Under the pieces are notes generated by a model. It saw only the letters and a program-made list of their open reading frames with translations. It ran no database searches and had not been told where the DNA came from. From Candidatus Poribacteria bacterium (lineage in GTDB: Bacteria > Poribacteria > WGA-4E > PCPOR2b): a stretch of 64,000 bases of DNA. Numbering within the stretch: position 1 is the stretch's first letter; every line of letters begins with the position of its first letter. Where the stretch lies: the NCBI GenBank assembly GCA_965208675.1, contig OZ242351.1, forward strand, positions 608,001 through 672,000. Reading direction: 5' to 3'. Shown here in pieces: positions 7,255 through 22,041 of the stretch. A program made the translations under genes and the position numbers.

Positions 7255-8040
7255 CTACGAATGCGTTGAATTCGTTGTACCCTTTCTATGTTCAAAGTGT
7301 GTTTGTAGAGCGACGCTGCTAGACAAGATATGTTGAGTCATTGCTTGCTGTGCCTCTTCAGCATCCCTTTTCTGGAGCGTTAGGAGAATTTTCTGGTGCT
7401 CTCGAACCGACAAAATTGCGCGTCTTTCCGCTTTAGGTATTGGGGGTTCGGCTAGACTCCCTTTAATCCACGTTTGCAGGTAATTGCGTGTCATGTTTAA
7501 TAGGTTATAAAGTATCGAATTTTGTGTGGCTTGAGCAACCGTAAGGTGGAACTGCACATCGAATTCTAAATATTTCTCGGGCTGCTGAATTGATGCTTCC
7601 ATTCCCTTAAGCGTTCGCTCGATTTCGTCTATGTTCTCGGACGAAGCCCTTTGTGCAGCTAGAAATGCGGTTTGGGATTCCAACATCAGCCGAGTTTCAA
7701 TCAAATCTTGGATTTTTTTTCGGTCGAGCAACAAACTCCACTGCAGGGCTTTTTCTAAATACCGCTCGTTGTCGTTGGAGACAAAAGTGCCGTCACCCAC
7801 TCGCCCGTCTAGTATTCCCATTACGGTAAGAGAACGCAGCGCTTCTCTTAACGAACTGCGTCCTACACCAAATTGTCTACATAGCTCACGTTCAGAGGGA
7901 AGCCGTTCTCCGGGTTTAAGCACATCTCTCGAAATCAGGTCGACAATTTGAGATACAATTTCATCGCTCAGAGACGTACGCGCAATAGGACGCATCTCTT
8001 CCATGGCTGAGTTGATCGTGTTATGGTGTCTCATAGTCAT
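7255..8040 (-). CDS. GntR/FadR-family transcriptional regulator (FCD domain), divergent from the methyl-transfer operon
   Basis: LKPGERLPSERELCRQFGVGRSSLREAL wHTH; FH...EH...H FCD residues. Confidence 0.95.
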   Translation of the reverse strand: MTMRHHNTINSAMEEMRPIARTSLSDEIVSQIVDLISRDVLKPGERLPSERELCRQFGVGRSSLREALRSLTVMGILDGRVGDGTFVSNDNERYLEKALQWSLLLDRKKIQDLIETRLMLESQTAFLAAQRASSENIDEIERTLKGMEASIQQPEKYLEFDVQFHLTVAQATQNSILYNLLNMTRNYLQTWIKGSLAEPPIPKAERRAILSVREHQKILLTLQKRDAEEAQQAMTQHILSSSVALQTHFEHRKGTTNSTHS

Positions 8041-8121
8041 CCACGCTGCCTCGTGTTTTCCATTTCACAATTCAATAATACCGTGCATGCAACCATAGTC
8101 AAATTGCACGAAAAAATTTTC

Positions 8122-8150
8122 TTTACAATTCTATGATTTTGCGATAAAAT
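8122..8150 (+). promoter_or_regulatory. Sigma70-type promoter of the methyl-transfer operon
   Basis: TTTACA (8122-8127), 17 bp spacer, TAAAAT (8145-8150). Confidence 0.6.
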
Positions 8151-8156
8151 TACTAA

Positions 8157-8167
8157 AGGTCAGACCA
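8157..8167. promoter_or_regulatory. FadR-subfamily operator
   Basis: Palindrome aGGTC-A-GACCa matches the FadR/PdhR/LldR-type TGGT-N3-ACCA box and sits over the predicted +1. Confidence 0.65.
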
Positions 8168-8267
8168 TCAGTTATTATGCTTCTAACTTTCTCTGTTGTC
8201 AAGTAAATTACATTGTGAACGAACAGCCGAGAATGCGATTAATTCATTACCCGAGAGGATTTAAATT

Positions 8268-8903
8268 ATGGGTGAGACGATCGATATTGGAAGGCGGATT
8301 GAATTGGTTCCGATGGATTCCCATTTTCAAGACATTACTATTGGCTTGTACAGCCAGGAACAGGATGAGGGTCCCGCTTTTTTGGTTCATACGTATAGTC
8401 GCCTTGACGGCACCGAGCAGCGCATTGCATTTGTGCGAAGGGCGATGAAAATTTTGGGAGGCATGGAATTTACTCCCGATGGGTTGCTACGGTTTACTTG
8501 TAAGACAAAACATGAACTTGCTTGTAAACGCATTTTTCTGGAAGCCTGCAAGCTCGACCCAGCTAAGCAGATCGAACCGCGCCCTCTAAATACTCTCGAC
8601 AGGAAGTCCGGTTTTACTATCACAGTCCTCAGTCTCGGAAACGGGGTTTATCAAATCACGGCCGACGGCGAGGGGCGCCACAGAGAAAAGCGCATTTCGG
8701 CTATAGGCGGAGGTTTAATTAAACTCGGGCAGATGGATGAAACAGGTGAAGATGCAGATCGAGTGGCTTTTTCTTGTGGACACGTCCACGATGCCATGGT
8801 TGGACTATTACTGGTTCGTGCGCCGAATGTACGCGCCGTAATGCGGGAACAGCAGGCGGTTACATCACGAGGGACGCTGTCAGCACCCAGCCAACAGGAA
8901 TAG
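8268..8903 (+). CDS. Uncharacterised protein with internal duplication, each half carrying LGxM...FxCxxxH
   Basis: RI...LGGM...RFTCKTKH versus RI...LGQM...AFSCGHVH; GAGGA RBS. Confidence 0.85.
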   Translation: MGETIDIGRRIELVPMDSHFQDITIGLYSQEQDEGPAFLVHTYSRLDGTEQRIAFVRRAMKILGGMEFTPDGLLRFTCKTKHELACKRIFLEACKLDPAKQIEPRPLNTLDRKSGFTITVLSLGNGVYQITADGEGRHREKRISAIGGGLIKLGQMDETGEDADRVAFSCGHVHDAMVGLLLVRAPNVRAVMREQQAVTSRGTLSAPSQQE

Positions 8904-8952
8904 TCTGAACGCAAGTAATGACTGGTCCTTTTTACGTTAGGAGAAAAACGAG

Positions 8953-9987
8953 ATGCAAACTCAATCGATGACGAGTCGCCAACGTGTCCTTGCAGCGTTG
9001 CAAAGAGCACCGGTGGATCGGACGCCCATTTGCAATCCGACATCTGTGGCCACGGTGGAATTGATGGACTTGGTGGATGCGCCGTTCCCTGAGGCAAACC
9101 GGCAGCCGGACCTGATGGCACGGCTAGCAGCGACTGGTTATACTGAGTTAGGATTCGACACGATTATGCCGGTTTTCACTATTATTCAAGAGTCTTCCGC
9201 ACTCGGTTGCAAGATTCAATGGGAACAAAAGGATAACTGGCCCACTGTGAAAATGCGAGAACCGATTTGGGAAGACGTTGAGGACATCATAATTCCGCCC
9301 AATCTCTTAACTCACCAAGATACTCGCTGCGTGACCGATGCGATCCAAATCCTCAAAAAGGAGTACGGAGAAGAAGTCGCTGTGATTGGCAAGACGATGG
9401 GGCCCTGGTCACTCGGATACCACTGTTTCGGAGTCGAGCCTTTTCTGCTGCTGTCCTTAGACGATCCGGAAAAAACGAAACTCGCGCTGGATAAGATGAA
9501 AGAAATCACGATAGCGTTTGGGTTAGCACAGATTGAAGCCGGGGCGGATGCGCTAACCTTGCCCGATCACGCAACTGGGGATTTGGTCAGCGGCGAGTAT
9601 TATCAGCGGTACTTGCGGGATCTTCACATTGAGTTCGCCGAACGCCTTCCAATCCCGCTTATTCTACATATTTGCGGGCGCACGGTCGACCGTATGGAGT
9701 ACATCGCACAAACTGGTTTCGCAGCCTTCCATTACGACTCCAAGAATGCCCCGGATGAGTCTATGGCAGTGATGCAGAAGCGAATTGCCCTAGTCGGAAA
9801 TATCAACAATCCCGAAACGTTGTTTGCAAAGGGTCCTGAGGAAGTGCGCCAGGAAGTCTACAAAAATCTTGATGCAGGCGTCGAACTTGTAGGTCCTGAA
9901 TGTGCGATTCCGCTGCAAACTTCGATTGAAAACCTAAAAGAGATTCCCGCCGCCGTCAATGATTGGCACCATCAAAATGCGAGTTAG
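8953..9987 (+). CDS. MtaA/CmuA-family (URO-D superfamily) corrinoid-dependent methyltransferase
   Basis: MTSRQRVLAAL, GPWSL, AQIEAGAD, Zn motif LHICG...PECAI, GNIN. Confidence 0.9.
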   Translation: MQTQSMTSRQRVLAALQRAPVDRTPICNPTSVATVELMDLVDAPFPEANRQPDLMARLAATGYTELGFDTIMPVFTIIQESSALGCKIQWEQKDNWPTVKMREPIWEDVEDIIIPPNLLTHQDTRCVTDAIQILKKEYGEEVAVIGKTMGPWSLGYHCFGVEPFLLLSLDDPEKTKLALDKMKEITIAFGLAQIEAGADALTLPDHATGDLVSGEYYQRYLRDLHIEFAERLPIPLILHICGRTVDRMEYIAQTGFAAFHYDSKNAPDESMAVMQKRIALVGNINNPETLFAKGPEEVRQEVYKNLDAGVELVGPECAIPLQTSIENLKEIPAAVNDWHHQNAS

Positions 9988-10026
9988 ATTTAAGAAGAAT
10001 AAATTTGAAACTTAAAGAGACACACT

Positions 10027-10791
10027 ATGCCTGAAATTACCGACATCGTAAATGAGTTCATTAGGGATGAAATCGAAGAATACATTGAGCGTGCCGATGA
10101 ACGCACGCGCACTATCGCAATATTTGCCCAAGCAAGTACCGCGATGCAAGCGATTGCTGCCGCACTTGTTGACGGTGACCACCATACCGTGGATCAATTA
10201 ACAAAAGAGGCTTTGGACGCGGGTACCGAGGCTTTGGAGATTATGGACGATGGCCTCATCGCTGGGATGGGCATTGTTGGAATAAAATTTCGAGAAAATT
10301 TCATTTTCGTCCCGGAGGTCCTCGCTTGTGCACGTGCCATGAAGGCAGGTATGGCGTATATTGAACCGATTCTGTCCGCGTCGGGGATTGAGCCTATTGG
10401 TACCGTTATCATGGGGACAGTGAAAGGAGATCTTCACGATATTGGCAAGAATCTATGCATCATGATGCTTCGCGGCGCAGGATTCGTTGTACACGATTTG
10501 GGCGTCGATACTTCAGACGACGAGTTTATTGATGCCGTGGAAGAACACGGTGCGCCGGTGCTAGGAATGTCGGCACTTTTGACGACGACGATGCCCAACA
10601 TGGGTAAGACGATTGAAGCTTTCATTGATGAAGATCTCCGCGAAGATGTCAAAATTATGGTAGGTGGTGCACCGGTGACCCAGGAGTTTGCCGATGATAT
10701 GGGAGCAGACGGATATGGGAAGGACGCACTTGCGTGTGTGGCGTTGGCGAAGCAACTATTTGTAGAACTTAGAGACGAAGGAAGGTTATAG
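10027..10791 (+). CDS. Corrinoid (B12-binding) protein, MtaC/MtbC/MetH-cap type
   Basis: FVPEVL cap, GDLHDIGKN (DxHxxG), SALLTTT, GGAPVT. Confidence 0.95.
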   Translation: MPEITDIVNEFIRDEIEEYIERADERTRTIAIFAQASTAMQAIAAALVDGDHHTVDQLTKEALDAGTEALEIMDDGLIAGMGIVGIKFRENFIFVPEVLACARAMKAGMAYIEPILSASGIEPIGTVIMGTVKGDLHDIGKNLCIMMLRGAGFVVHDLGVDTSDDEFIDAVEEHGAPVLGMSALLTTTMPNMGKTIEAFIDEDLREDVKIMVGGAPVTQEFADDMGADGYGKDALACVALAKQLFVELRDEGRL

Positions 10792-10980
10792 TTGATCCTA
10801 CACCAGTTTTGCTTAATGCTCCCACCTCGCTATTCTGATGAAGCAACTATGCAAAGATTGGCCAAGCAAATGAATTAGCGCATACTTGGACTTAATCGCT
10901 TATCGGCGAAGTTGTCTAGCTCGGTTTTAGTCACTGCCAAAATTCAAGTCTGTGCGTTGAATTTGCGGATAAGACTCATT

Positions 10981-12894
10981 ATGCTGAAAATCCCCAAGGA
11001 AGAATACCGGAAACGGTTGGACAAAATTACGGAATTGTTCGCTAGCATCGTGGGGCACGCCGATGAACAAGCCGCATATAGGTGTCCTTACAAAAACCGG
11101 TTCGATCAATGTACCGCCAAATTCGGCTGTAGAAATCAGCGTAAACCTCGTGAAAAAGGGAAGTCATTGATGTGCGGCGGCGACGATAAGCTAGACTATC
11201 GCGGTGCTTGGGATACTGAGGCCGATGTAGGGGTTTTTATTGAGAGAGATGGCGATTACGGAAAGGGTACCATAACGCATGATGACACAAAGCGTAAACT
11301 TATGGCCGGCAAAACGGTTTTCGACTATGCTGACGAATTGGCGGTACAGGTGCCGACCTCCTGTTTGCGTACGGGGCAATGTCACGAGTGTATAGTTGAG
11401 ATAAAGCAAGGCATAGAGGCATTACGTCCGCGCAACGAAGCTGAGTCGTTTCTACGGGAAAATTACCGCCTTGCTTGTCAGGCAGTTGTCGAGAACCCTG
11501 ATGTCGATGTACAGTTTTCGCCGCTGCGCAGAAAGCCCAGGATTCTCACACTTACCCAAGAAAAGCCCGTTGAGCTCAAACCGATGGTCACCCGTCAGGG
11601 CGATACAGTCTACTACGATAGGGAAGCTATCGACACATACCGCGGGCACCTTTACGGTCTTGCCATAGATTTGGGTACCACAACCGTCGTAATGGATTTG
11701 GTAAATCTTGAGACCGGCGAAAGCGTAAGCGTCAACTCCTTTGAAAATCCTCAGCGGTTCGGCGGCAGCGATGTGATGCATCGTATTTCATATGATGGCG
11801 TGTTTGCCGGTGAGTTACGCAAGGCGGTTACCAATGGTCTGAATCACGAAATCGCCGAGATGGGAAAACGGTTGGGCTTCGTCCGTCAGGAAATCTACGA
11901 GATTGTTGTTGCGGGCAACTCGACTATGCGCGATATTTTCTTCAAGCTGGATGTGCAGAGCATCGGCCAAAAGCCCTACAAGTCCGTGATTGAACATGCG
12001 TACATCGCAGAGGAACTCAACACGACTTCGCTTGTTGAGAAAACGCGGCGATTAGGGCTTCGGGCGAATCCAAGAGCCCGAGTTTATGGGTTGCCGTTGA
12101 TTGCAAGCCATGTGGGTGCCGATGTTGCAGCCGATTTGGTTGCCATTGACATGGCATCGCAGAAAAAAGCCGTCATGCTGGTAGATGTTGGTACTAACAC
12201 TGAAGTCGTTGTGGGACACGCAGGAAGGCTGATAACAGCGTCTTGTCCGGCAGGTCCCGCGTTTGAAGGAGGCGGAATTAAATTCGGTATGCCAGGGTAC
12301 GAAGGAGCCATCGAGTCTATTCGGTGGGGTGACGGTCATATCAACTATGACACTATTGGCGGTATTGCACCACAAGGAATCTGTGGATCGGGATTAATCG
12401 ACCTGTTGGCAGAACTTCGCCGCCATAATCAGATGACAGCAAAAGGTGTTTTTGCTGATAGAAAACAGTATGACATGACCGTTGTGCCTGAACATGGCAT
12501 TACGCTTTCCCGGGAAGACATTAGCAACTTGGCTCAAGCCAAGGCAGCCAATTACTGCGGACAATTTATTGTCTTGCGAAAGTTCGGTATCGACCCAACG
12601 GAAATCAATCGGCTCTATTTGGCCGGTGGATTCGCAAATTATGTGGATGTTCACAATGCCGTCGAAATCGGTTTTCTTGCGCCAGTGCGCGGCGATAGAA
12701 TCGTCAAAGTTGGAAACGCGGCGGTGCAGGGCGCGCGGGAAGTTCTCCTATCACGGAAAAAGCGTGACGCTATTGAGCATCTGGTTAAAGGAATCGAACA
12801 TGTCGAACTAGAGACAACGCCCGATTTCTTCGAGGTGTTCGTGGAAGGGTGCCAGTTTAAACCCATGCCGAAGGAGTTAGCTGACATATCATGA
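10981..12894 (+). CDS. RamA/RACE-type ASKHA ATPase corrinoid reactivase (DUF4445) with [2Fe-2S] domain and extra N-terminal 4-Cys domain
   Basis: CLRTGQCHEC...RLACQ, DLGTTT, NPQRFGGSDV, DVGTNTE, AGPAFEG, GICGSG, LAGGF. Confidence 0.93.
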   Translation: MLKIPKEEYRKRLDKITELFASIVGHADEQAAYRCPYKNRFDQCTAKFGCRNQRKPREKGKSLMCGGDDKLDYRGAWDTEADVGVFIERDGDYGKGTITHDDTKRKLMAGKTVFDYADELAVQVPTSCLRTGQCHECIVEIKQGIEALRPRNEAESFLRENYRLACQAVVENPDVDVQFSPLRRKPRILTLTQEKPVELKPMVTRQGDTVYYDREAIDTYRGHLYGLAIDLGTTTVVMDLVNLETGESVSVNSFENPQRFGGSDVMHRISYDGVFAGELRKAVTNGLNHEIAEMGKRLGFVRQEIYEIVVAGNSTMRDIFFKLDVQSIGQKPYKSVIEHAYIAEELNTTSLVEKTRRLGLRANPRARVYGLPLIASHVGADVAADLVAIDMASQKKAVMLVDVGTNTEVVVGHAGRLITASCPAGPAFEGGGIKFGMPGYEGAIESIRWGDGHINYDTIGGIAPQGICGSGLIDLLAELRRHNQMTAKGVFADRKQYDMTVVPEHGITLSREDISNLAQAKAANYCGQFIVLRKFGIDPTEINRLYLAGGFANYVDVHNAVEIGFLAPVRGDRIVKVGNAAVQGAREVLLSRKKRDAIEHLVKGIEHVELETTPDFFEVFVEGCQFKPMPKELADIS

Positions 12895-12973
12895 CTTTAG
12901 AAAGTGTTGGGCAGCTCACGTACCAGATAAGAAGCCTACAGGAAAGCTGACCACATATCTTTAGGAGACGAAG

Positions 12974-14011
12974 ATGAAGCTTAACGGTCTAGAATTCATA
13001 ATTATTGGTGAAAATGTCCACACTACTCGTGTGGTGCGTCGAAAAGGGAAGCTCGTTACGAATAACGCTGACGGCGTCGAATCCATTCGCTATCTAGATA
13101 AAAACAAAAAACGCCGGTATCTCGTCATCCCCGATAGCATCAGGAAAACTCAGGACTACGAGGAAGGGCGCATTAAACACGTCAAGATCGCCATTCAGGC
13201 AGCCATGACCGAAAAAAATCCTCATGCCGGTGAAGGGCTCGAGTACCTGATGCGACTAGTGCAACGTCAGTTAGACGCCGGAGCCGATTACTTAGACTTG
13301 AATGTAGACGAAGTCTCACTGCATCTTGAGGAACAAAAGGCTGCCATGAGATGGCTTGTGCAGACCGTGCAGGAGATGTATTCTATTCCATTGTCGGTGG
13401 ATTCATCCAATACGGAAATCATACAAGCGGGACTTGAGGCTGCTGATGGCAAAGATGCCCAAACTATGCTAAATTCAGCAGCACCGGAACGCCTTGAAAC
13501 CTTAGATCTTGCGAAACAGTATCATACGAGGGTCATTGTTCAAGCAGCGAGCGTAAACGGTATGCCAGAAAACGCAGAAGAACGGGTGTCCAATGCCTCT
13601 TTCATGGTGGAAAAAGCCTTAGATAAAGGGATTGCGATTCATGATATTTTCATTGACCCCGTAATCTTTCCAATCTCGGTCGACAGCCAATACGGCAATC
13701 ACTGCTTCGATGCGATACGGCAAATCCGCGAGAAATATGGTCCCAATCTCCATATTAGCGGTGGTTTCAGCAACGCCTCATTCGGTTTGCCATGCCGCCG
13801 CCTCATTAACGATGTATTTATGATGTTAGCCATTGAAGCAGGTGCTGACAGTGGGATCATCGATCCTGTCACGAGTGACCCTCGAAAGATTATGGAAATG
13901 GATCGACAGTCAATGCCCTACAAACTCGCTGAAGATATGCTTCTGGGTAGGGACGAATATTGCGCTAATTTTATTAAAGCATATCGAAAAGGGGAATTGG
14001 AGCTCCGCTAA
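12974..14011 (+). CDS. Methyltetrahydrofolate:corrinoid methyltransferase (AcsE/MetH pterin-binding, DHPS fold)
   Basis: IIGEN, AGADYLDLN, LSVDS, MLNS, FIDP, SNASFGLP, DSGIIDP; long insertion after strand 1. Confidence 0.9.
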   Translation: MKLNGLEFIIIGENVHTTRVVRRKGKLVTNNADGVESIRYLDKNKKRRYLVIPDSIRKTQDYEEGRIKHVKIAIQAAMTEKNPHAGEGLEYLMRLVQRQLDAGADYLDLNVDEVSLHLEEQKAAMRWLVQTVQEMYSIPLSVDSSNTEIIQAGLEAADGKDAQTMLNSAAPERLETLDLAKQYHTRVIVQAASVNGMPENAEERVSNASFMVEKALDKGIAIHDIFIDPVIFPISVDSQYGNHCFDAIRQIREKYGPNLHISGGFSNASFGLPCRRLINDVFMMLAIEAGADSGIIDPVTSDPRKIMEMDRQSMPYKLAEDMLLGRDEYCANFIKAYRKGELELR

Positions 14012-14014
14012 ACC

Positions 14015-14293
14015 GTGGCTGAATATCAAATATTGTACTGGAAAGGCATTCCAGCCCAGGTGAGAGTTTTTGAGGGAAAGAAAACAATCTCGCGAGAGAT
14101 GCCCGCTCGTTTCCAAGCTGACATCGATCGAATCGCAATGCAAGAAGGTTTGTACGGAAGTGACAACTATCTTGACCAATGGGAATGGACCGAGAAACGC
14201 CAGCGGACCGGCGATGCCAAACTAGTATTAGATTCGCTTTTACGTGAACTCGAAACCGATTACGACGATAAATTTAGAAAACCGAAAAATTAA
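14015..14293 (+). CDS. Small 'virulence factor' family (PF13769-like) protein
   Basis: YWKGIPAQV...RFQ..IDR.AM..G..GSD.YL..W signature. Confidence 0.8.
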   Translation: MAEYQILYWKGIPAQVRVFEGKKTISREMPARFQADIDRIAMQEGLYGSDNYLDQWEWTEKRQRTGDAKLVLDSLLRELETDYDDKFRKPKN

Positions 14294-14301
14294 TTCCAAT
14301 A

Positions 14302-15348
14302 ATGCCCAAATTCTCACCTGAGACGCTTCGTCAAATCGGGTACCAGCTTTTTGAAGCCGCGGGGTGTAAACCCGAAGATGCGCACGTAGTGGTTAATCAC
14401 CTGATCGAATCCAATCTCTTTGGTCATGATTCTCACGGCGCAATTCGGTTTGGCGAATACCTGCGCGCTATTCGAGAAGGCCGGTTCCAACCTCGTGAAA
14501 CACCTGAGACTGTAAGCGAAAACCCATGCACTGCGGTCGTTGACGCCCACGGCGCGCTAGGGCAAATCGGCGCGTCCTATGCGATGAACTTGGCAATTGA
14601 AAAGGCTGGCCGCCACGGTGTTGGCACGGTGACCTTACGGAATACAAGCCATGTTGGGCGCGTGGGCGCCTATCCCTTAATGGCCGCTCAGACAGAGATG
14701 ATTGGTCTTGCCTTTGTCAATGCGGGCCGGCTCGGTTACCAAATAGTTCCCTTTGGAGGCATCGACGGCCGCCTAAGTACCAACCCGATTGCATTTGCCG
14801 CCCCGCGCCGGGAAGCCCCGCCTATTTTTGTTGATATGACTACCTCGGTATCTGCTGAAGGTAAAATTCGGGTTGCTATCAACCAAGGGAAGCAGGTTCC
14901 GGAGGGTTGGATCATCGATGCTCAAGGCAATCCCACCACGGATCCAAAAAAATTTACAGGTCCTCCGCCCGGAGCCATCCTCCCATTAGGCGGAGTAGTA
15001 GCACACAAGGGTTACGGTTTGAGTATTGTAGTAGAACTCTTGGGCGGTGCCTTGAGCGGTCAGGGTTGTGCCGCTGGTGAACGTTCAATGGCAAGCAATG
15101 GCGTGTTATTTACCGTATACCACATTGAGCATTTCACCACTCTTGATGCTTTCTATAACGAAGTGGAATCACTGCTTCATTACGTCAAATCGAGCCGACT
15201 AGCCCCCGGGTTTGTGGAAATCTTAGCGCCTGGTGAACCTGAATTTCGTAACGCTCAACGGAAGACGGTCGAAGGAATTGATATTGATGAGACAACTTGG
15301 AATAATATCTGCCTAGAAGCTCTCGCCTTCGGGATTAATCTAGAATAA
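14302..15348 (+). CDS. Ldh_2 family (malate/L-lactate/L-sulfolactate dehydrogenase, ComC/AllD-like) oxidoreductase
   Basis: GHDSHG, SHVGR, TNPIAF, DMTTS, HKGYGL, PGEPE. Confidence 0.92.
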   Translation: MPKFSPETLRQIGYQLFEAAGCKPEDAHVVVNHLIESNLFGHDSHGAIRFGEYLRAIREGRFQPRETPETVSENPCTAVVDAHGALGQIGASYAMNLAIEKAGRHGVGTVTLRNTSHVGRVGAYPLMAAQTEMIGLAFVNAGRLGYQIVPFGGIDGRLSTNPIAFAAPRREAPPIFVDMTTSVSAEGKIRVAINQGKQVPEGWIIDAQGNPTTDPKKFTGPPPGAILPLGGVVAHKGYGLSIVVELLGGALSGQGCAAGERSMASNGVLFTVYHIEHFTTLDAFYNEVESLLHYVKSSRLAPGFVEILAPGEPEFRNAQRKTVEGIDIDETTWNNICLEALAFGINLE

Positions 15349-15400
15349 TGGTGTACCAAAGCAATGTAATGGTCGAAAATTTAAAATTAGAGCGCTTCAA

Positions 15401-16402
15401 ATGAGGACGTTTCTTGAGAGGTTAGCCGACCCAAGCCCTATGATTTACGACGGCGGATTTGGCTCAGAATTGTTCGCCAGGGGGATAGAGCTGACGAATA
15501 GCGCACTTGCAAACGAACTGCATGCAGACGCGGTAATGGATATTCATTCTGATTATATTGAAGCAGGTGTTAATGCCCTAGGAACAAACACATTTGTAGC
15601 TTCGAGGCTGCATCTTGAAATGGCAGGAATAGAGGGACATGCGGCGGATGAAATCGCCCAGTTGGCGGTAGAACATGCCAAGGTAGCGGTTGAAAAAGGT
15701 GGCAAGGAGATATATATCGCAGGATCGATTGGGCCTTCGCCCGGCGCAATTGAAGCCGATAGCGGCGACATAGATTTTGGAATCCCGAACGCTGTTGTCA
15801 GGGATGTTTACGAGAGGCTGGCGAACATTCTGGCAGATGGCGGCGTTGACTTTTTCTGTATAGAAACTATGTTTTCCGCGAAGGAAGCCGCAATAGCAGT
15901 CGATGTTACCAGAAAATACGGGCTTCCTATCGCCGTAAACTTGACATATAAGCACACGAAGGACCGCGCTAGCGGCAATGTCGTCTACCGTACAGATTGG
16001 GGGCATTCGGCGGCGGATTTGTTAGGTATCTTGTCAAGCGGGGAGTTCTCCAATGGTGATAATCTCTTGGATTATGTCCACATATTAGGTCTAAATTGTG
16101 GCGCGGAGGTCAAGCATGAGCAACACACTGGGATGCCCTATGCGATAAATGGAATACAACAGTTGAAAGACGCATTGGCGATGAACAATGTTCAACCGAA
16201 ACGGTTGATGGCTTATCCAAATGCAGGTATGGCACGCCTGGACGAGAATCAGCGTACATATTATTCGCAATCCGCAGAAGAAATGGTGATTTACTTACCA
16301 ACTCTTCTCCAAGCAGGTGCATATTTTGTCGGTGGATGCTGCGGCACTGGATTTTCGCACATTAAAGCCTTTCGTGAAATTATCTCCCCGATAAACAATT
16401 GA
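15401..16402 (+). CDS. Homocysteine S-methyltransferase family protein (stand-alone MetH Hcy domain/Bmt-like)
   Basis: DGGFGSEL, TNTF, AGSIGP, IETM, Zn ligands GLNC and GGCCG. Confidence 0.92.
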   Translation: MRTFLERLADPSPMIYDGGFGSELFARGIELTNSALANELHADAVMDIHSDYIEAGVNALGTNTFVASRLHLEMAGIEGHAADEIAQLAVEHAKVAVEKGGKEIYIAGSIGPSPGAIEADSGDIDFGIPNAVVRDVYERLANILADGGVDFFCIETMFSAKEAAIAVDVTRKYGLPIAVNLTYKHTKDRASGNVVYRTDWGHSAADLLGILSSGEFSNGDNLLDYVHILGLNCGAEVKHEQHTGMPYAINGIQQLKDALAMNNVQPKRLMAYPNAGMARLDENQRTYYSQSAEEMVIYLPTLLQAGAYFVGGCCGTGFSHIKAFREIISPINN

Positions 16403-16450: not shown

Positions 16451-16479
16451 TTGACAATCTCCCACTAGAGTCGTATACT
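16451..16479 (+). promoter_or_regulatory. Sigma70 promoter for the FBP aldolase/phosphatase gene
   Basis: TTGACA, 17 bp spacer, TATACT. Confidence 0.7.
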
Positions 16480-16674
16480 AACAATTTATAAAAATGCTGT
16501 TGCCTACCTTCTTTAGGCTTTTGTTTTTCCCGTCTTAATACATGTCTCAAGTGAACACTTGCCTAACTTCAGTATGTATAGTTTAGTCTAATAAACGGCG
16601 ATTCCGAATTCATCCGCGGTTTTGAAAATGGTAAGATGTATAAGGGGGGTGACAGCAACTTTGGAGGTGAATGA

Positions 16675-19212
16675 ATGTCCGATTCCTTTGATAAATCTAG
16701 AGAAAATCGTCCACACGGACAATCTAATGTCACCATTGTTACTCTCGATTTGGGGCGTTGGATTCATGGTGAATTGCCCAATCAGATTGTAGAATTGGCA
16801 CGCAATGAACTTCAAGGCGGACTATTAGAGAACCGGTTGCGAGGTGCGTGGGTACGAGGATTTGCGCAGGATTTGCATCTGCACATAACAACCTACAACG
16901 AAGATTTCATCGTAAACGGCGCGTATACGAATCATCCCATTGAGGCCGCGGTGCGAGCCGCTGTCAATGCGGGTCTCATTGCGCTGGAACAAGCCGTTAA
17001 AATGCAACGCTGTACTGACGCGGCGAAGGAAGTCCTGACACTTGATACCGAACAGCAAGCCGAGGCGTTGGGGCCGTATTACCTAAACTTCCCCTTTACC
17101 GAGAGAGGCGCCGAACCCATATTTGCTGCGAAGGCTATCAACGGAAGCTGGGGATTCTTCAACCGCGCCGTTTTTAATCTGTTTTTCAACCCGGATAAAG
17201 GTTCCGGGAGGCGCATTGAGGGAAATGAATTTTTAGGTGTAGTTGAATCAATTGCGGATCTCAAGAACGGCGTGGATAATGTACGAACCTATGAGTTTGG
17301 CCCTGGAAACCTTAACGAAATGGTCGCGTTAATTGCCGACGCCGATGAATGGCGTCTCAGCCGCGTTTACGCAGTCCGTGGTAAGTTCGGTGAAAGTGAA
17401 CTGCGCGGAGAACCCGCCCTTGTGGTCGAAGGTGCCAAAAACCCAGTTTTGGTAGGTCGCTCTCAGTCAGGTCTTCCCGCTGTCGGTGAATTCACTCAAG
17501 CCGTTGGAGAATTCTGCTTTGGACCGGGAGGCGGCGCAGGCAAATACCGGGTTGGACTCATACCCGTTAATTTTGAGGAGGCGCGCTGCTATTCCATTCC
17601 TCAAGGTACAGCGAAAGTAGTCGCCTATGCCTATCAGTCCTACGGCTACGGAAAGATTCCGAGTGATTCGGATGTGGTTGACGTTTTTGACCAAAACCGC
17701 CCTGAGACTAGGCGTTTACAGCGAGATGCAGCAGACCTAATAGGGAAAATGGTCAGTCACGGGGAGTTTGAGCCTTACGTGAACCCAATGGCCGCAGAAG
17801 ATACCGCCTCACAGGAAGCGCAACATTTGGAGGCGCGATTTGAATCCATTCCTGAAATTTCCGACCCCTTGTTAGAAGCCGCCAACAAAAAGGCTAAATT
17901 CACACTTTCAGATATCAAAGCCGACAGCGGCGGCAAAGTCGGACATACCACACCGCCTCACCTGTTCCGATATGTCGCGGAAGCTAGCCTGCAAGAAGGG
18001 AAAGATGCAGGGCTAATTTTTGAATCGTCCGAAATCATAGAAGTCGGGGACGACGGACATCTGTTGATGAGTCATAACCGCGGCACCGATAGCAATGATA
18101 TTCATCTTTTCGCTTACCGTACTTTTTTCCGGCAAGTGTGGGTAGCGGAGGTGTTAGGACATAAGTGGTATGGTTTGGGGCAGGATTTGGTCGGCGAAAC
18201 TACGGCTGGACACCCTACCGAAGAATTGGCAAACCTTAACGATGCTTTCCTCAAATTATTGCCCAAATTCCTTCCTACTGTGGAACGTGCGCATATACGT
18301 CGGCTAGAAAATGCCTATAACGTGTGGAAGACTGGTGAAGGACAAGGGCATAAAGTACTTCACGTTTTCTCAGGAAACATCTCGGGACAAGGTCCCGGCT
18401 TTGCGGAACTCCCGTTGGTTCGCCCTGGCAGAATTGGGTTGCTGGCAATTGACAAAACAGGTCCCTCAGCTTTTAATTTGCCAATATGGTGGAGTCTAAA
18501 TCAAGCATCAGCATCGGGCGCCCTCACTTCCTATCTCAACCGAACCGGGGGAGTAGGCTGCGTACTGGAGATTTGGGATGTGGAACATCATCGTCGAATT
18601 TTCTTAGATTTCAAGAGTGAAGCAGAAATTGCACAGCATTTACTTGGCGCGGTCGAAAGGTTTAACATCAAGCGAATATGGAGCCGTCGAGGAAAAAACT
18701 GGAACGCAGAAAGCCCATCGGACGGACTGGGTGAGGTGCTTTTGGCGGCCTCCACAGAAAAGCTCGCGGTCATTACCGGCGGAGAATACCGAGGGAAAGA
18801 TGACCCTGTTTTGCTTGCAGTGGAGCCTTTGGCGGACGCGCTCAACCTATTCATGCGCGACTGCTTTTATATGACCCAGGGAGATGGCCGAGGTTCTCAT
18901 TTCATGTTCCCGACGCCGCTTCCCTTCCAAGATGCTATTGCGACGGTCAACAGCCGCGCCGTGGCGGTGTCCGCTTGGGTAAGTATAAATTCTGACGGTC
19001 AGATTTGTGGGTTGCAAGACGTTTTTTCGGATGCAATCTACGAAACTGCACGGGATCGAGCTTACCGGTTCAATAAAGCAATCTGGGATGCTCAAGGTGG
19101 CAACTTTATTCCCGTCGGTGTAGGTTCAGCCAAGGTAGAACAATCCTATCCTCTGGCAAAAACGCTGGACCGCATCACCGCCTCAAATTCCGAGTTTGCG
19201 TCCAAGCACTAG
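16675..19212 (+). CDS. fbp: Tandem-duplicated class V fructose-1,6-bisphosphate aldolase/phosphatase
   Basis: C-half has IKADSGG.VGH, VGDD, YGLGQDL, FSGNISGQGPG, DKT, YRGKDDP and RGSH. N-half is a degenerate copy with ERGAEP, RSQSGLPAVGE and HGEFEP. Confidence 0.85.
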   Translation: MSDSFDKSRENRPHGQSNVTIVTLDLGRWIHGELPNQIVELARNELQGGLLENRLRGAWVRGFAQDLHLHITTYNEDFIVNGAYTNHPIEAAVRAAVNAGLIALEQAVKMQRCTDAAKEVLTLDTEQQAEALGPYYLNFPFTERGAEPIFAAKAINGSWGFFNRAVFNLFFNPDKGSGRRIEGNEFLGVVESIADLKNGVDNVRTYEFGPGNLNEMVALIADADEWRLSRVYAVRGKFGESELRGEPALVVEGAKNPVLVGRSQSGLPAVGEFTQAVGEFCFGPGGGAGKYRVGLIPVNFEEARCYSIPQGTAKVVAYAYQSYGYGKIPSDSDVVDVFDQNRPETRRLQRDAADLIGKMVSHGEFEPYVNPMAAEDTASQEAQHLEARFESIPEISDPLLEAANKKAKFTLSDIKADSGGKVGHTTPPHLFRYVAEASLQEGKDAGLIFESSEIIEVGDDGHLLMSHNRGTDSNDIHLFAYRTFFRQVWVAEVLGHKWYGLGQDLVGETTAGHPTEELANLNDAFLKLLPKFLPTVERAHIRRLENAYNVWKTGEGQGHKVLHVFSGNISGQGPGFAELPLVRPGRIGLLAIDKTGPSAFNLPIWWSLNQASASGALTSYLNRTGGVGCVLEIWDVEHHRRIFLDFKSEAEIAQHLLGAVERFNIKRIWSRRGKNWNAESPSDGLGEVLLAASTEKLAVITGGEYRGKDDPVLLAVEPLADALNLFMRDCFYMTQGDGRGSHFMFPTPLPFQDAIATVNSRAVAVSAWVSINSDGQICGLQDVFSDAIYETARDRAYRFNKAIWDAQGGNFIPVGVGSAKVEQSYPLAKTLDRITASNSEFASKH

Positions 19213-19666: not shown

Positions 19667-20272
19667 ATGGGCGTTAAAGAACGCAGAAAAAGGGAAAAAG
19701 AGCAGTTACGGCGTCAGATTCTTGCTGCCGCGCGAGAGTTGTTCGTCAATGAAGGCTACGAAAACGTCTCTATGCGAAAGATTGCCGATAAGATTGAGTA
19801 TTCGCCGACGATGATTTACCTATACTTCAATGGAAAGGCAGATCTTTTGGATTCCGTTTGCCAAGAAACTCTCCTGAACTTATTGAATACATTTGAACTA
19901 CTGAAAAAGGATAAAAGCGACCCCGTTGAGAACCTGAGAAAAAGTGGTAAAGCCTATGTCGAATTCGGTCTAAAGTACCCGCAGGATTATAAGCTGACAT
20001 TTGTCGTCCGTCCTCAGTACCAGAAGGGTTTAGGTCTGCCAGAAGGATCGATTGGCGAAAGAGTGTTTAATTACCTGAGTGCAATGGTCTCCGAATGTGT
20101 TCGACAGAAGACCTTCCGCCAAGTGGATGTCGAAATCACCGGTCAAGCGCTGTGGTCAGCAGTTCACGGAGTTACCATGCTCCTGATTGATTTCCCCGAT
20201 TTCCCCTGGACAGCCAAAGATAAATTGATTGACACGGTGATACACACGATGATCGGAGGTTTGAAGGCGTAG
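19667..20272 (+). CDS. TetR/AcrR-family regulator (WHG-like C-terminal domain)
   Basis: ILAAARELF...SMRKIA..IEYSP..IYLYF..K; WSAVHG. Confidence 0.95.
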   Translation: MGVKERRKREKEQLRRQILAAARELFVNEGYENVSMRKIADKIEYSPTMIYLYFNGKADLLDSVCQETLLNLLNTFELLKKDKSDPVENLRKSGKAYVEFGLKYPQDYKLTFVVRPQYQKGLGLPEGSIGERVFNYLSAMVSECVRQKTFRQVDVEITGQALWSAVHGVTMLLIDFPDFPWTAKDKLIDTVIHTMIGGLKA

Positions 20273-20478: not shown

Positions 20479-22041
20479 GTGGTGCTTGGAGTGTTCTTAT
20501 CGGGATGCACGACGCTGTTCGGGAAAGAGGTTAATCCGATACCCCTTGCCTCCGAGGAATTTTCTTTCAAGCAGTACGAAATCGTCACGGGCACAGCAAA
20601 ACACCAAACCGTTTTGACAGGATTTCTTCTTGGCGGTATTAGCGCGGAAATTGTAGTGGTGAGCATCGACACGGCGCATAATCGCCGGTTATTTCTGTAC
20701 GAATTTAACAGCGAGAGTTGGGCAATAAAGCTCGACGCAACGCTGCGTCCGGAAGTGCTATTCGTCGACGTGGTTAACATCAAAGGACGCGACCGATTGA
20801 TTACATATGAGCACGGTCGCATAAATTGGTTCGAGCCCGAAGCATCAATCGAGCACTTGCTGGTCGAGGTTAGTACTAATATCCCGCCTCCCGAAATTGA
20901 TGTCCCCCATGTTGATATTACGCGGGACCTCAATGGTGATGATCGAGACGATATAGTCTTGCCGGATGCCGACGGCTTCTGGGTGTTCATCCAGATGAAC
21001 GATGGTGCATTCGCCGATCCGATAAAGATTGGTCCCTCGTTTAAGATGGGTGAAATCTACACGGCTGACGGGTACCGATTCATCCCATGGAATGAAAGCC
21101 GCATCCACGAAGTGGACTATAACCGAGATGGGCGCATTGACCTCGTCTTCTGGCGTGAGGACCACTTCGTAGTTCATCCTCAAGATGAGCATGGGCTGTT
21201 TTCTCCAGATACGGAGACCTTCTGTACGGAAGTGAGATTCGATTCGGACGACCTCTCATCGCTTGTCGCGCCCGAAGGGGTACGCGGCAGGCGTTTTGAT
21301 CACGGTGCACCTGGAGTCATGACGGGAAGAGTGTTGCACGAATTGACCGATATGAACCATGACGGTGTCGCCGACCTGGCGGTATTTTCCTTGCAGGCGG
21401 GGAGTGGCCGCCTATTCGGTCAGACATCCAAGTTGTGGGGTATGCGCTCCACCTACGAGGTGCACTTTGGGGTGCCGGCGCCGGGCGCCACTGAATTCGG
21501 ATTAGAGGTTGGCACCATGATTCGGGCAGACGGAATCCCGTTCGAGATAGCCACGCGCGACTTCGACCACGATGGTCATGTCGATGTGATGTTCACGGTC
21601 ATTAATCCGGGTGTCTTCAAAATCATCGGTATGTTGGTAAGGGGGATGGCCACGGATTCCGCGTTGCTAGATCTCAATCTCTACCGCTTGACAGACAACA
21701 CGTATCCCGACGACCCCAACACTTCTCGTAAAATCAAAGCGTATACTCCTGGAGATTCAGGGGAGAAAGCCATGCACTTTCCGGCGCTGCTCTACGGGGA
21801 CGTATCCGGCGACGGACTCTCGGACCTTTTGGTACAGAATGGACTGAAAGAACTTTACGTCTTCATCGGCGAGCGCGGCCCGAATATGTTCGCCCGGAAG
21901 CCTCAAAAGGTAGCAATCAACATGCCGTACGAGGAATACACCCAGTTGATAGATCTTAACGGAGACGGCTTATATGATGTCCTCATGCATCACCCGTCCA
22001 TCGCAGAGCCGCATCGGGTGACTATGCTTATTGCTCAATGA
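20479..22041 (+). CDS. FG-GAP/VCBS-repeat lipoprotein (start uncertain)
   Basis: LSGC lipobox; several DxNxDGxxD loops (DLNGDDRDD, DYNRDGRID, DMNHDGVAD, DFDHDGHVD, DVSGDGLSD, DLNGDGLYD). Confidence 0.85.
   Translation: MVLGVFLSGCTTLFGKEVNPIPLASEEFSFKQYEIVTGTAKHQTVLTGFLLGGISAEIVVVSIDTAHNRRLFLYEFNSESWAIKLDATLRPEVLFVDVVNIKGRDRLITYEHGRINWFEPEASIEHLLVEVSTNIPPPEIDVPHVDITRDLNGDDRDDIVLPDADGFWVFIQMNDGAFADPIKIGPSFKMGEIYTADGYRFIPWNESRIHEVDYNRDGRIDLVFWREDHFVVHPQDEHGLFSPDTETFCTEVRFDSDDLSSLVAPEGVRGRRFDHGAPGVMTGRVLHELTDMNHDGVADLAVFSLQAGSGRLFGQTSKLWGMRSTYEVHFGVPAPGATEFGLEVGTMIRADGIPFEIATRDFDHDGHVDVMFTVINPGVFKIIGMLVRGMATDSALLDLNLYRLTDNTYPDDPNTSRKIKAYTPGDSGEKAMHFPALLYGDVSGDGLSDLLVQNGLKELYVFIGERGPNMFARKPQKVAINMPYEEYTQLIDLNGDGLYDVLMHHPSIAEPHRVTMLIAQ

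Follow-up and report, generated by a model that had tools for sequence, protein, structure and literature searches.

What does a zinc methyltransferase of the methanogen type do in the same bacterial operon as the separate parts of a methionine synthase? The question is raised by a stretch of 64,000 nucleotides, in the following called the window, which covers positions 608001-672000 of the 4.89-Mb single-contig metagenome-assembled genome (MAG) of a Candidatus Poribacteria bacterium, a sponge symbiont; coordinates are window positions unless another sequence is named. Open reading frame (ORF) listing, together with Pfam and NCBIfam scans of the window proteins, places eight co-oriented plus-strand genes at 8268-16402, separated in order by 49, 39, 120, 79, 3, 8 and 52 bases, next to a divergent regulator gene at 7255-8040. 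The eight genes encode a 211-residue protein of an unnamed family (unk211), a methyltransferase of the MtaA/CmuA family (in the following MtaA-like), a corrinoid methyl-carrier protein, a reductive activase (RACo), a pterin-binding methyltransferase, a small PF13769 protein, an Ldh_2-family dehydrogenase and a homocysteine S-methyltransferase module (HMT). Judged by its gene content and its recurrence in other genomes, the operon belongs with the modular corrinoid methyltransferase and split-MetH systems, as a conserved variant that is so far uncharacterised and has a predicted new subunit.

Modular B12 methyltransferase systems in aerobes have been recognised only recently, and the known case is the glycine betaine demethylation of roseobacters, which is tied to methionine synthesis. 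Split MetH has been described in Phaeobacter inhibens (10.1101/192971) and Ruegeria pomeroyi (PMC12478193). In MtgBCDE, a single corrinoid protein and one bidirectional pterin enzyme act both in making methionine and in demethylating glycine betaine, the latter by an enzyme of the MttB family (PMC12478193). Our literature search yielded no description of a module of MtaA-like and unk211; the supplements of PMC12478193 and PMC10418091, which lay outside that search, may list related neighbourhoods.

The initial annotation of the window had proposed that one corrinoid protein is served by three candidate methyltransferases and a RamA-type activase, and by Pfam and NCBIfam all of these are present. 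The eight co-oriented genes with short gaps, the divergent FadR-type gene and the FadR box that it described were likewise recovered in position and domain content, the promoter being a consensus match. We give about an even chance to the following reading: a single corrinoid carrier is used by up to three methyltransferases, among which MtaA-like together with unk211 would be the enzyme that loads the carrier from an S-methyl, Se-methyl or halide donor. The largest share of this falls to an S-methyl donor (methanethiol, dimethyl sulfide or a methylthio-acid), which we put forward tentatively; a methyl halide donor, as in CmuA, is quite unlikely, and Se-methyl or other donors are very improbable.

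Results

The MtaA-like enzyme

The MtaA-like protein matches PF01208 (URO-D) over profile positions 1-345 of 346. It exceeds the cut-offs of two models of the MtaA/CmuA family (TIGR01463, 248.2 vs 235.4; PRK06252, 257.8 vs 244), and it reaches neither the MtaA equivalog NF040654 (234.9 vs 400) nor the MtbA model NF041608 (194.5 vs 600). Its closest sequence match in the PDB is MtaA (4ay7, E 1.9e-52); a hand count gives 104 identical residues in 336 alignment columns, i.e. about 31% identity with this Methanosarcina mazei protein. Residues H239, C241 and C317 are unchanged in 25/25 MtaA-like sequences and align to the LHICG and PGCG segments of 4ay7. We read them as a His-Cys-Cys zinc site, the role of the ligands being that stated in PMC10418091 and customary in the family. 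Such a triad is the mark of S- and Se-methyltransferases in the UroD superfamily, whereas O-demethylases replace the cysteines (PMC10418091).

Only two URO-D genes occur in the genome, the one of the operon and another, 1.5 Mb away and with a higher URO-D score, which we read as hemE. A protein search of a plasmid collection with MtaA-like returned only matches below 30% identity, to hemE-like or unnamed UroD proteins, and no CmuA. In genome G004, a paralogue of about 50% identity to MtaA-like has neither unk211 nor a corrinoid gene as neighbour.

MtaA-like is the most conserved protein of the operon together with its carrier. Outside Poribacteria, the median identity to the window protein is 80% for both MtaA-like and the corrinoid protein, 67% for RACo, 63% for HMT, 61% for the GntR regulator, 57% for the pterin enzyme, 55% for unk211 and 51% for the PF13769 protein. 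Across phyla, the identity of MtaA-like lies between 73 and 85% despite saturated synonymous sites: at conserved residues of the four-fold type, third-codon-position identity is 0.29-0.36 in 10/10 comparisons. Recent horizontal transfer was considered as the source of this high identity and is ruled out by the saturated third positions. By this comparison MtaA-like is held under exceptionally strong selection.

Conservation of the module

Within the phylum, MtaA-like was found at E<=1e-30 in 152/176 genomes (150 at about 79-100% identity, two at about 50%), and high-identity orthologues of the corrinoid protein occur in 150/176, with weaker matches in a further 12. When the high-identity proteins are cross-tabulated, 148 genomes hold both, 24 neither and four are discordant, so that 172/176 are concordant, in a sample whose related genomes are not independent; the discordant four all come from assemblies in 50-760 contigs. 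The genes of unk211 and MtaA-like are adjacent in 17/18 loci of relatives, the exception being a 49% paralogue. Family f1 keeps the entire operon, and the genus g5 has a MTHFR gene inserted before the pterin gene. The complete genome G103, of family f2, has no MtaA-like or corrinoid genes and retains of the HMT orthologue only a remnant of 64 residues, and the module is therefore lost as a unit.

Beyond the phylum, a nine-row alignment of unk211 was scanned against species genomes; 122 places were confirmed, and the best 80 of these 122 were taken as loci. Their labels comprise Poribacteria, Latescibacterota, Gemmatimonadota, Opitutales/Moanabacter, Acidimicrobiia, Gaiellales/Thermoleophilia, Alpha- and Betaproteobacteria, Acidobacteriota/Bryobacteraceae and Planctomycetota. 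Since the loci were selected by their likeness to unk211, this protein is present in 80/80 by construction. The other genes were sought by tblastn with the window proteins, and their counts are lower bounds, some contigs being short: MtaA-like is found in 80/80 loci, adjacent to unk211 in each, the corrinoid protein in 78, RACo (after the corrinoid gene) in 71, PF13769 in 50, HMT in 41, the pterin enzyme in 40, the GntR regulator in 30 and Ldh_2 in three, one of them a 34% match on the opposite strand. The order unk211, MtaA-like, corrinoid, RACo recurs across phyla, with two recurrent layouts: HMT-PF13769-unk211-MtaA-corrinoid-RACo, or a GntR gene divergent from unk211-MtaA-corrinoid-RACo-(MTHFR)-pterin-(HMT)-PF13769. 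In at least 16 loci, RACo and the pterin gene are separated by a MTHFR gene with a DUF5981 tail. MtaA-like/unk211 is the part of the module most tightly tied to the carrier. Natural fusions exist: four proteins of 607-634 residues join an MtaA-like part (URO-D at 16-346) to a corrinoid part (B12 domains at 424-619), in the architecture of CmuA.

The expectation that the genes of the operon would be conserved together across genomes is thus borne out for all but one of them: they recur across phyla, and MtaA-like and the corrinoid protein agree in the 176 genomes as given above, and Ldh_2 falls out. The latter occurs in 8/18 relatives, all of family f1, and is, as far as these loci tell, a lineage-specific addition of that family, outside the conserved module. 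Clustering of neighbouring ORFs yielded D-2-hydroxyacid dehydrogenases, unrelated to Ldh_2, beside the module in 12/80 loci of several phyla, with about two expected by a rough estimate of chance in which related loci are not independent; this clustering called the longest ORFs and picked antisense frames in GC-rich loci, and its counts are lower bounds. The other recurrent neighbours that it returned (GNAT, APH kinase, Zn-ADH, S41 peptidase, MnmG, lipoyl synthase, HicB) were set aside as lineage-specific and unrelated.

The operon tolerates insertions after RACo, as seen in two loci of relatives, where genes unrelated to the module lie between RACo and the MTHFR/pterin genes (L028:12280-13848 in g5 and L026:12472-14013 in g4). 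These inserts encode an Eco57I/N6-type DNA methylase and a PhyH-family dioxygenase, and in L026 also a DDE transposase.

unk211 and the predicted complex

For unk211 no family was found in Pfam or NCBIfam and no usable match in the ESM Atlas. Among 1.84 billion proteins, 224 cluster representatives match it at E<=0.001, and by this measure the unk211 family is real. In a 35-row alignment D17 does not vary, and C78/H82 and C170/H174 make up two C-x3-H motifs of an internally repeated fold; the two motifs may form a metal site. An AlphaFold2 model of unk211 has a mean predicted local distance difference test (pLDDT) of 93 and a predicted template modelling score (pTM) of 0.87. When the model was compared with the PDB by Foldseek, nothing was found at E<=0.001, the best hit having an E of 0.055 and a template modelling score of 0.14.

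Prediction of MtaA-like and unk211 as a complex gave an interface score (ipSAE) of 0.88 as the median of three runs, the best control reaching 0.00; this mark is attained by 58/80 solved complexes and by 2/110 mismatched pairs. Contact agreement between the runs is at least 91%, and the pLDDT of the partner at least 87. On the side of the enzyme, the predicted interface comprises residues 317-318 (with the zinc ligand C317), 320-326, 286-287, 35-44 and 92-96, and on the side of unk211 residues 2-26, 42-46 and 199-204. The model supports binding, and unk211 is predicted to be a partner subunit that sits on the active-site face of MtaA-like.

Operon layout and the remaining proteins

Table 1. 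Features of the corrinoid methyltransferase operon and its flanks in the window
Feature	Position	Strand	Basis
GntR/FCD (FadR-subfamily) transcription regulator	7255-8040	-	Pfam GntR 66 bits, FCD 89 bits
Promoter-like site	8122-8150	+	TTTACA, 17 nt, TAAAAT; 10/12 consensus matches; consensus match only
Putative operator core, palindrome GGTCAGACC	8158-8166	.	Read from sequence; 3' of the promoter-like site
unk211, 211-residue protein of an unnamed conserved family	8268-8903	+	No Pfam or NCBIfam family
MtaA-like: MtaA/CmuA-family UroD-fold zinc corrinoid methyltransferase	8953-9987	+	PF01208 215 bits
Corrinoid (B12-binding) methyl-carrier protein	10027-10791	+	PF02607 (B12-binding_2) and PF02310 (B12-binding)
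RACo/RamA-type ATP-dependent reductive activase with 2Fe-2S domain	10912-12894	+	Fer2, Raco_middle, RACo_C_ter
Pterin-binding (methyl-tetrahydrofolate:corrinoid) methyltransferase, MtgD/AcsE/CmuB-like	12974-14011	+	PF00809 83 bits
PF13769 ('Virulence_fact') small accessory protein	14015-14293	+	PF13769 68.7 bits
Ldh_2-family 2-hydroxy/oxo-acid dehydrogenase	14302-15348	+	PF02615 361 bits
HMT: homocysteine S-methyltransferase module (MetH N-terminal module, MtgE-like)	15401-16402	+	PF02574 165 bits
Terminator-like hairpin 3' of the last gene	16502-16518	+	Consensus scan; such sites not enriched vs shuffles, weak

The features of the operon are listed in Table 1. By the consensus scan, the hairpin and a strong promoter-like site (16451-16479) set the operon apart from the next gene.

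The corrinoid protein has DLHDIG at residue 135, i.e. the D-x-H-x-x-G motif, which presumably carries its usual meaning here. HMT has cysteines at 233, 313 and 314, a triad that we take to be in its customary role. RACo scores 290 bits on the AcsV model, under the cut-off, and the pterin enzyme 214.5 on PRK07535 (cut-off 259). Even at E 0.1, no Pfam family is matched by the first approximately 120 residues of RACo (10912-11277, plus strand), which precede the 2Fe-2S domain; in relatives the alignment spans 634-651 of its 660 residues, so most of this N-terminal extension is conserved. PF13769 clusters of the Atlas are stand-alone proteins of 87-100 residues, and a search for fused or longer relatives found none, which is weak evidence; in the 50 loci that have it, the PF13769 gene directly follows the HMT or the pterin gene. 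Ldh_2 attains no NCBIfam equivalog cut-off (YbiC-like, 276.9 vs 336; sulfolactate dehydrogenase, 218.5 vs 500).

Downstream of the operon, a fructose-1,6-bisphosphate aldolase/phosphatase gene (16675-19212, plus strand) encodes 845 residues, about twice the usual length, with a full profile match from about residue 408 and a partial FBPase_3 match in the N-terminal 400 residues. The protein looks like a tandem duplication or fusion, and relatives of the same genus keep its entire length at 81-95% identity. It is followed by a TetR-family regulator (19667-20272) and an FG-GAP-repeat protein of 520 residues (20479-22041, plus strand), the last of which is unrelated to the operon.

Methionine synthesis in this genome

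Matches to TIGR02082 (MetH) fall on three separate genes of the operon. HMT is the sole PF02574 gene of the genome and lies inside an open frame of 352 residues; no full-length MetH frame was found in the genome, in a search that covered PF02574. There are two Pterin_bind genes, that of the operon and one read as FolP. Because PF02574 occurs once, a single Pterin_bind gene is left beside FolP and a full-length MetH is lacking, the operon is, by these profile matches, the only MetH-type methionine synthase of the genome, in split form. The earlier statement that the operon does not serve plain methionine synthesis was therefore too strong.

The genome (96.4% complete) has no match to the MttB family PF06253, and thus no MtgB, and none to DUF1638 (PF07796); MTHFR is represented by one weak match. 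Outside the window, a Meth_synt_2 frame of 348 residues (contig positions 4428907-4429884) could be a folate-independent 'core' MetE, and its product might also take methyl groups from the corrinoid protein of the operon.

The regulator and its putative operator

With an N-terminal GntR winged helix-turn-helix and a C-terminal FCD domain, the regulator has the domain layout of the FadR subfamily. Its best NCBIfam models are NanR, LldR and PdhR, all three under their cut-offs, and it also resembles GlcC. In the 30 loci that have it, its orthologue is divergent from unk211. A (T)GGTC[A/T]GACCA box with a GGTnnnACC core is present in 32/38 intergenic regions between regulator and unk211, from relatives and other phyla, a sample in which some members are kin and one record or more occurs twice; in shuffled sequences it was seen in 1.2 regions on average and in four at most. 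The palindrome at 8158-8166 is therefore likely to be the binding site of the GntR/FCD regulator, and FadR-type control, as annotated at the outset, gains from the conservation of regulator and operator alike. A GntR/FCD repressor would bind the TGGTCWGACCA box over the promoter and would probably respond to a carboxylate. In the same genus, locus L024 of genome G003 has no GntR match reported beside unk211, the stretch examined reaching about 4 kb past that gene, and one TAA was flagged in the frame around its MtaA-like gene.

Discussion

A proposed shared carrier with a second methyl branch

The methyl flow, its direction and its substrate, as we infer them, would be the following. RACo/RamA would hold the cobalt of the carrier as active Co(I), using ATP and its 2Fe-2S domain. 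The predicted heterodimer of MtaA-like and unk211 would act as MT1 and transfer to Co(I) the methyl of a small donor whose leaving atom is soft (a thioether, a methylated thiol, a methyl halide or a methyl selenide); from there the methyl would pass to homocysteine, or to tetrahydrofolate (THF) in loci that have the pterin enzyme. The pterin enzyme would exchange methyl between methyl-THF and the carrier in either direction, and HMT would pass the methyl of the carrier to homocysteine to give methionine; carrier, RACo, pterin enzyme and HMT together make up a split MetH.

What argues most strongly for a real second entry or exit of methyl groups is family f2 of the Poribacteria. In 4/4 of its genomes with the unk211/MtaA-like pair there is a full MetH (frames of 1229-1254 residues), and in 4/4 no stand-alone orthologue of the pterin enzyme was found. 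In these genomes the module has to be independent of methyl-THF, and it is not the sole methionine synthase.

It is possible, with the balance somewhat against it, that unk211 and MtaA-like form a previously unrecognised two-subunit zinc methyltransferase that, across many uncultured phyla of bacteria, feeds methionine synthesis and one-carbon (C1) metabolism straight from an unactivated environmental methyl compound. The route through the B12 carrier would then be independent of methyl-THF, and unk211, as a new fold, would make up the substrate site or act as its gate.

Several observations weigh against a loading role of MtaA-like/unk211. Families f2 and f3 carry the pair far from the corrinoid gene, alone among housekeeping genes, and have a corrinoid-RACo-HMT or corrinoid-RACo...pterin-PF13769 cluster elsewhere in the genome. 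The sequence leaves the direction of methyl flow through MtaA-like unfixed, and the characterised MtaA and MtbA are acceptor-side enzymes. The substrate class is drawn from the zinc triad, and the cut-off of the MtaA equivalog is missed. unk211 could also gate or block MtaA-like rather than assist it, because its predicted site covers the face where the corrinoid protein would be expected to dock. Enzymes that capture a substrate at the periphery do not usually show a cross-phylum identity of the size seen here, and the role of MtaA-like may be a more central one. Finally, all 80 loci come from MAGs, whose binning labels may be wrong. The extreme conservation of MtaA-like is explained by none of the readings considered here, including the following alternatives.

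Unlikely, but the best of these alternatives, is an acceptor branch, in which MtaA-like/unk211 moves methyl from methyl-Co(III) to a thiol or selenide, as MtaA does. Sulfide, methanethiol, a mercapto-acid or a compound resembling coenzyme M (CoM) would be candidate acceptors, and the source of the methyl would be methyl-THF, by way of the pterin enzyme, or an S-methyl donor such as methionine, by way of HMT. The nearest solved relative is indeed a methylcobalamin:CoM methyltransferase, the top NCBIfam models are CoM methyltransferases, and a His-Cys-Cys zinc site activates thiols (PMC10418091); the 218 bits of Ldh_2 on the sulfolactate dehydrogenase model, under its cut-off, fit as well. However, where the f2 module lacks a pterin enzyme, the donor would have to be methionine through a reversed HMT, a reaction that we reason to be near energy-neutral and that would work against methionine supply. 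Moreover, the 80 loci show no recurrent gene by which an acceptor thiol would be made or used, and the fusion of MtaA-like with the corrinoid protein is the architecture of CmuA, a donor-side enzyme.

A plain split methionine synthase, in which MtaA-like/unk211 is a part for maintenance or control and not a separate substrate branch, is improbable. The pair would, for instance, load the cofactor, protect or reset the corrinoid protein, or gate the flow of methyl groups. Such a housekeeping complex would accord with the lack of another MetH-type synthase in the genome and with the strong conservation of MtaA-like and the corrinoid protein, their synonymous sites being saturated; unk211 is predicted to lie over the active-site face, and the Phaeobacter system's helper DUF1638, whose role is unexplained, is missing here. 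Against this, the split MetH of Phaeobacter and Ruegeria functions without an MtaA-like protein (10.1101/192971; PMC12478193), f2 Poribacteria retain the module despite a complete MetH, and the intact zinc triad argues for true catalysis on a soft nucleophile.

Equally improbable is the catabolism of a methylated 2-hydroxy/oxo-acid (e.g. a methylthio-hydroxy acid of the dimethylsulfoniopropionate (DMSP)/methionine cycle) with Ldh_2 as an integral step and an acid-sensing regulator: Ldh_2 does stand within the operon, 8 and 52 bases from its neighbours, D-2-hydroxyacid dehydrogenases were recruited independently beside the module more often than expected (a weak point), and the regulator, conserved along with its operator, resembles NanR, LldR, PdhR and GlcC, but Ldh_2 itself is confined to three of the 80 loci and, in Poribacteria, to family f1, no dehydrogenase attains any equivalog cut-off, no transporter or other catabolic gene recurs, and most loci have no dehydrogenase at all. 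The proposal of the initial annotation that the embedded Ldh_2 takes part in the pathway is weakened accordingly, the dehydrogenase neighbours, the likeness of the regulator and the conservation of regulator and operator being what is left of it.

If the loading role of MtaA-like/unk211 is true, the module would add to the modular B12 systems a second branch, distinct from the first, in which a methanogen-type zinc enzyme is combined with a partner that has no known fold. The module spans at least nine named bacterial groups, and a two-subunit enzyme would concern symbionts of sponges and corals as well as pelagic and soil lineages. With a methyl-sulfur or methyl halide donor, the module would constitute a new sink for climate-relevant trace gases and would give a new reason why B12 is needed in soils, in the ocean and in sponge holobionts. 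Five or six clonable proteins make the question directly testable.

Comparison with known systems

The homocysteine, pterin and B12 modules are homologous to segments of MetH. Unlike in MetH, they lie on separate proteins, RACo would stand in place of the S-adenosylmethionine-dependent activation domain (PF02965), and there is an extra methyltransferase branch.

With the soluble CoM methyltransferases MtaA, MtbA, MtsA and MtpA of Methanosarcina, MtaA-like shares the UroD fold, the His-Cys-Cys site, a cognate corrinoid protein and a RamA-type activase. The hosts, however, are bacteria without sign of CoM use, and the module adds unk211 and a homocysteine methyltransferase. The type 1 mlp clusters are bacterial themselves and likewise combine His-Cys-Cys MtaA-like enzymes, for which methyl-S/Se chemistry has been proposed, with a corrinoid protein and a RACE activase (Kountz & Balskus, PMC10418091). 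These clusters have at least two Mlps (Mlp2, Mlp3), belong to obligate anaerobes, mostly Firmicutes, and are without THF or homocysteine methyltransferases (PMC10418091). The module described here, by contrast, has a single MtaA-like gene, together with unk211, HMT and often the pterin enzyme, and occurs in other phyla.

The chloromethane dehalogenase CmuA/CmuB of Methylobacterium and Hyphomicrobium resembles the module in several respects (in part after PMC13222342): an MtaA-like part is coupled to a corrinoid module, with fused forms in existence, a pterin-binding methylcobalamin:THF methyltransferase and a nearby MTHFR paralogue belong to the system, the hosts are aerobes, and TIGR01463 is shared. 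The comparison is one of architecture, and the module differs in that the two parts of CmuA are usually separate genes here. unk211, HMT, RACo and PF13769 are not known to belong to cmu clusters.

In gene content, the closest likeness is to split MetH as it occurs in Phaeobacter and Ruegeria. With its corrinoid, pterin, HMT and RamA components the operon matches split MetH/MtgCDE as these are described in 10.1101/192971 and PMC12478193, so that the claim of a pathway without characterised counterpart holds for the MtaA-like branch, for which our literature search yielded no match, and fails for the remainder. Both have separate corrinoid, pterin and PF02574 proteins, a RamA-like Fer2+DUF4445 activase and a MTHFR paralogue beside the pterin gene; the carrier is shared there, and would be shared here, by methionine synthesis and a substrate-specific demethylase, and MetH is absent in many of the organisms that carry them. 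The two differ in the demethylase and its surroundings: MtgBCDE employs MtgB of the MttB family (PF06253) and is accompanied by DUF1638, whereas the operon described here has PF13769, unites its genes under a GntR/FCD regulator, and has in the place of MtgB an MtaA/CmuA-family zinc enzyme together with unk211.

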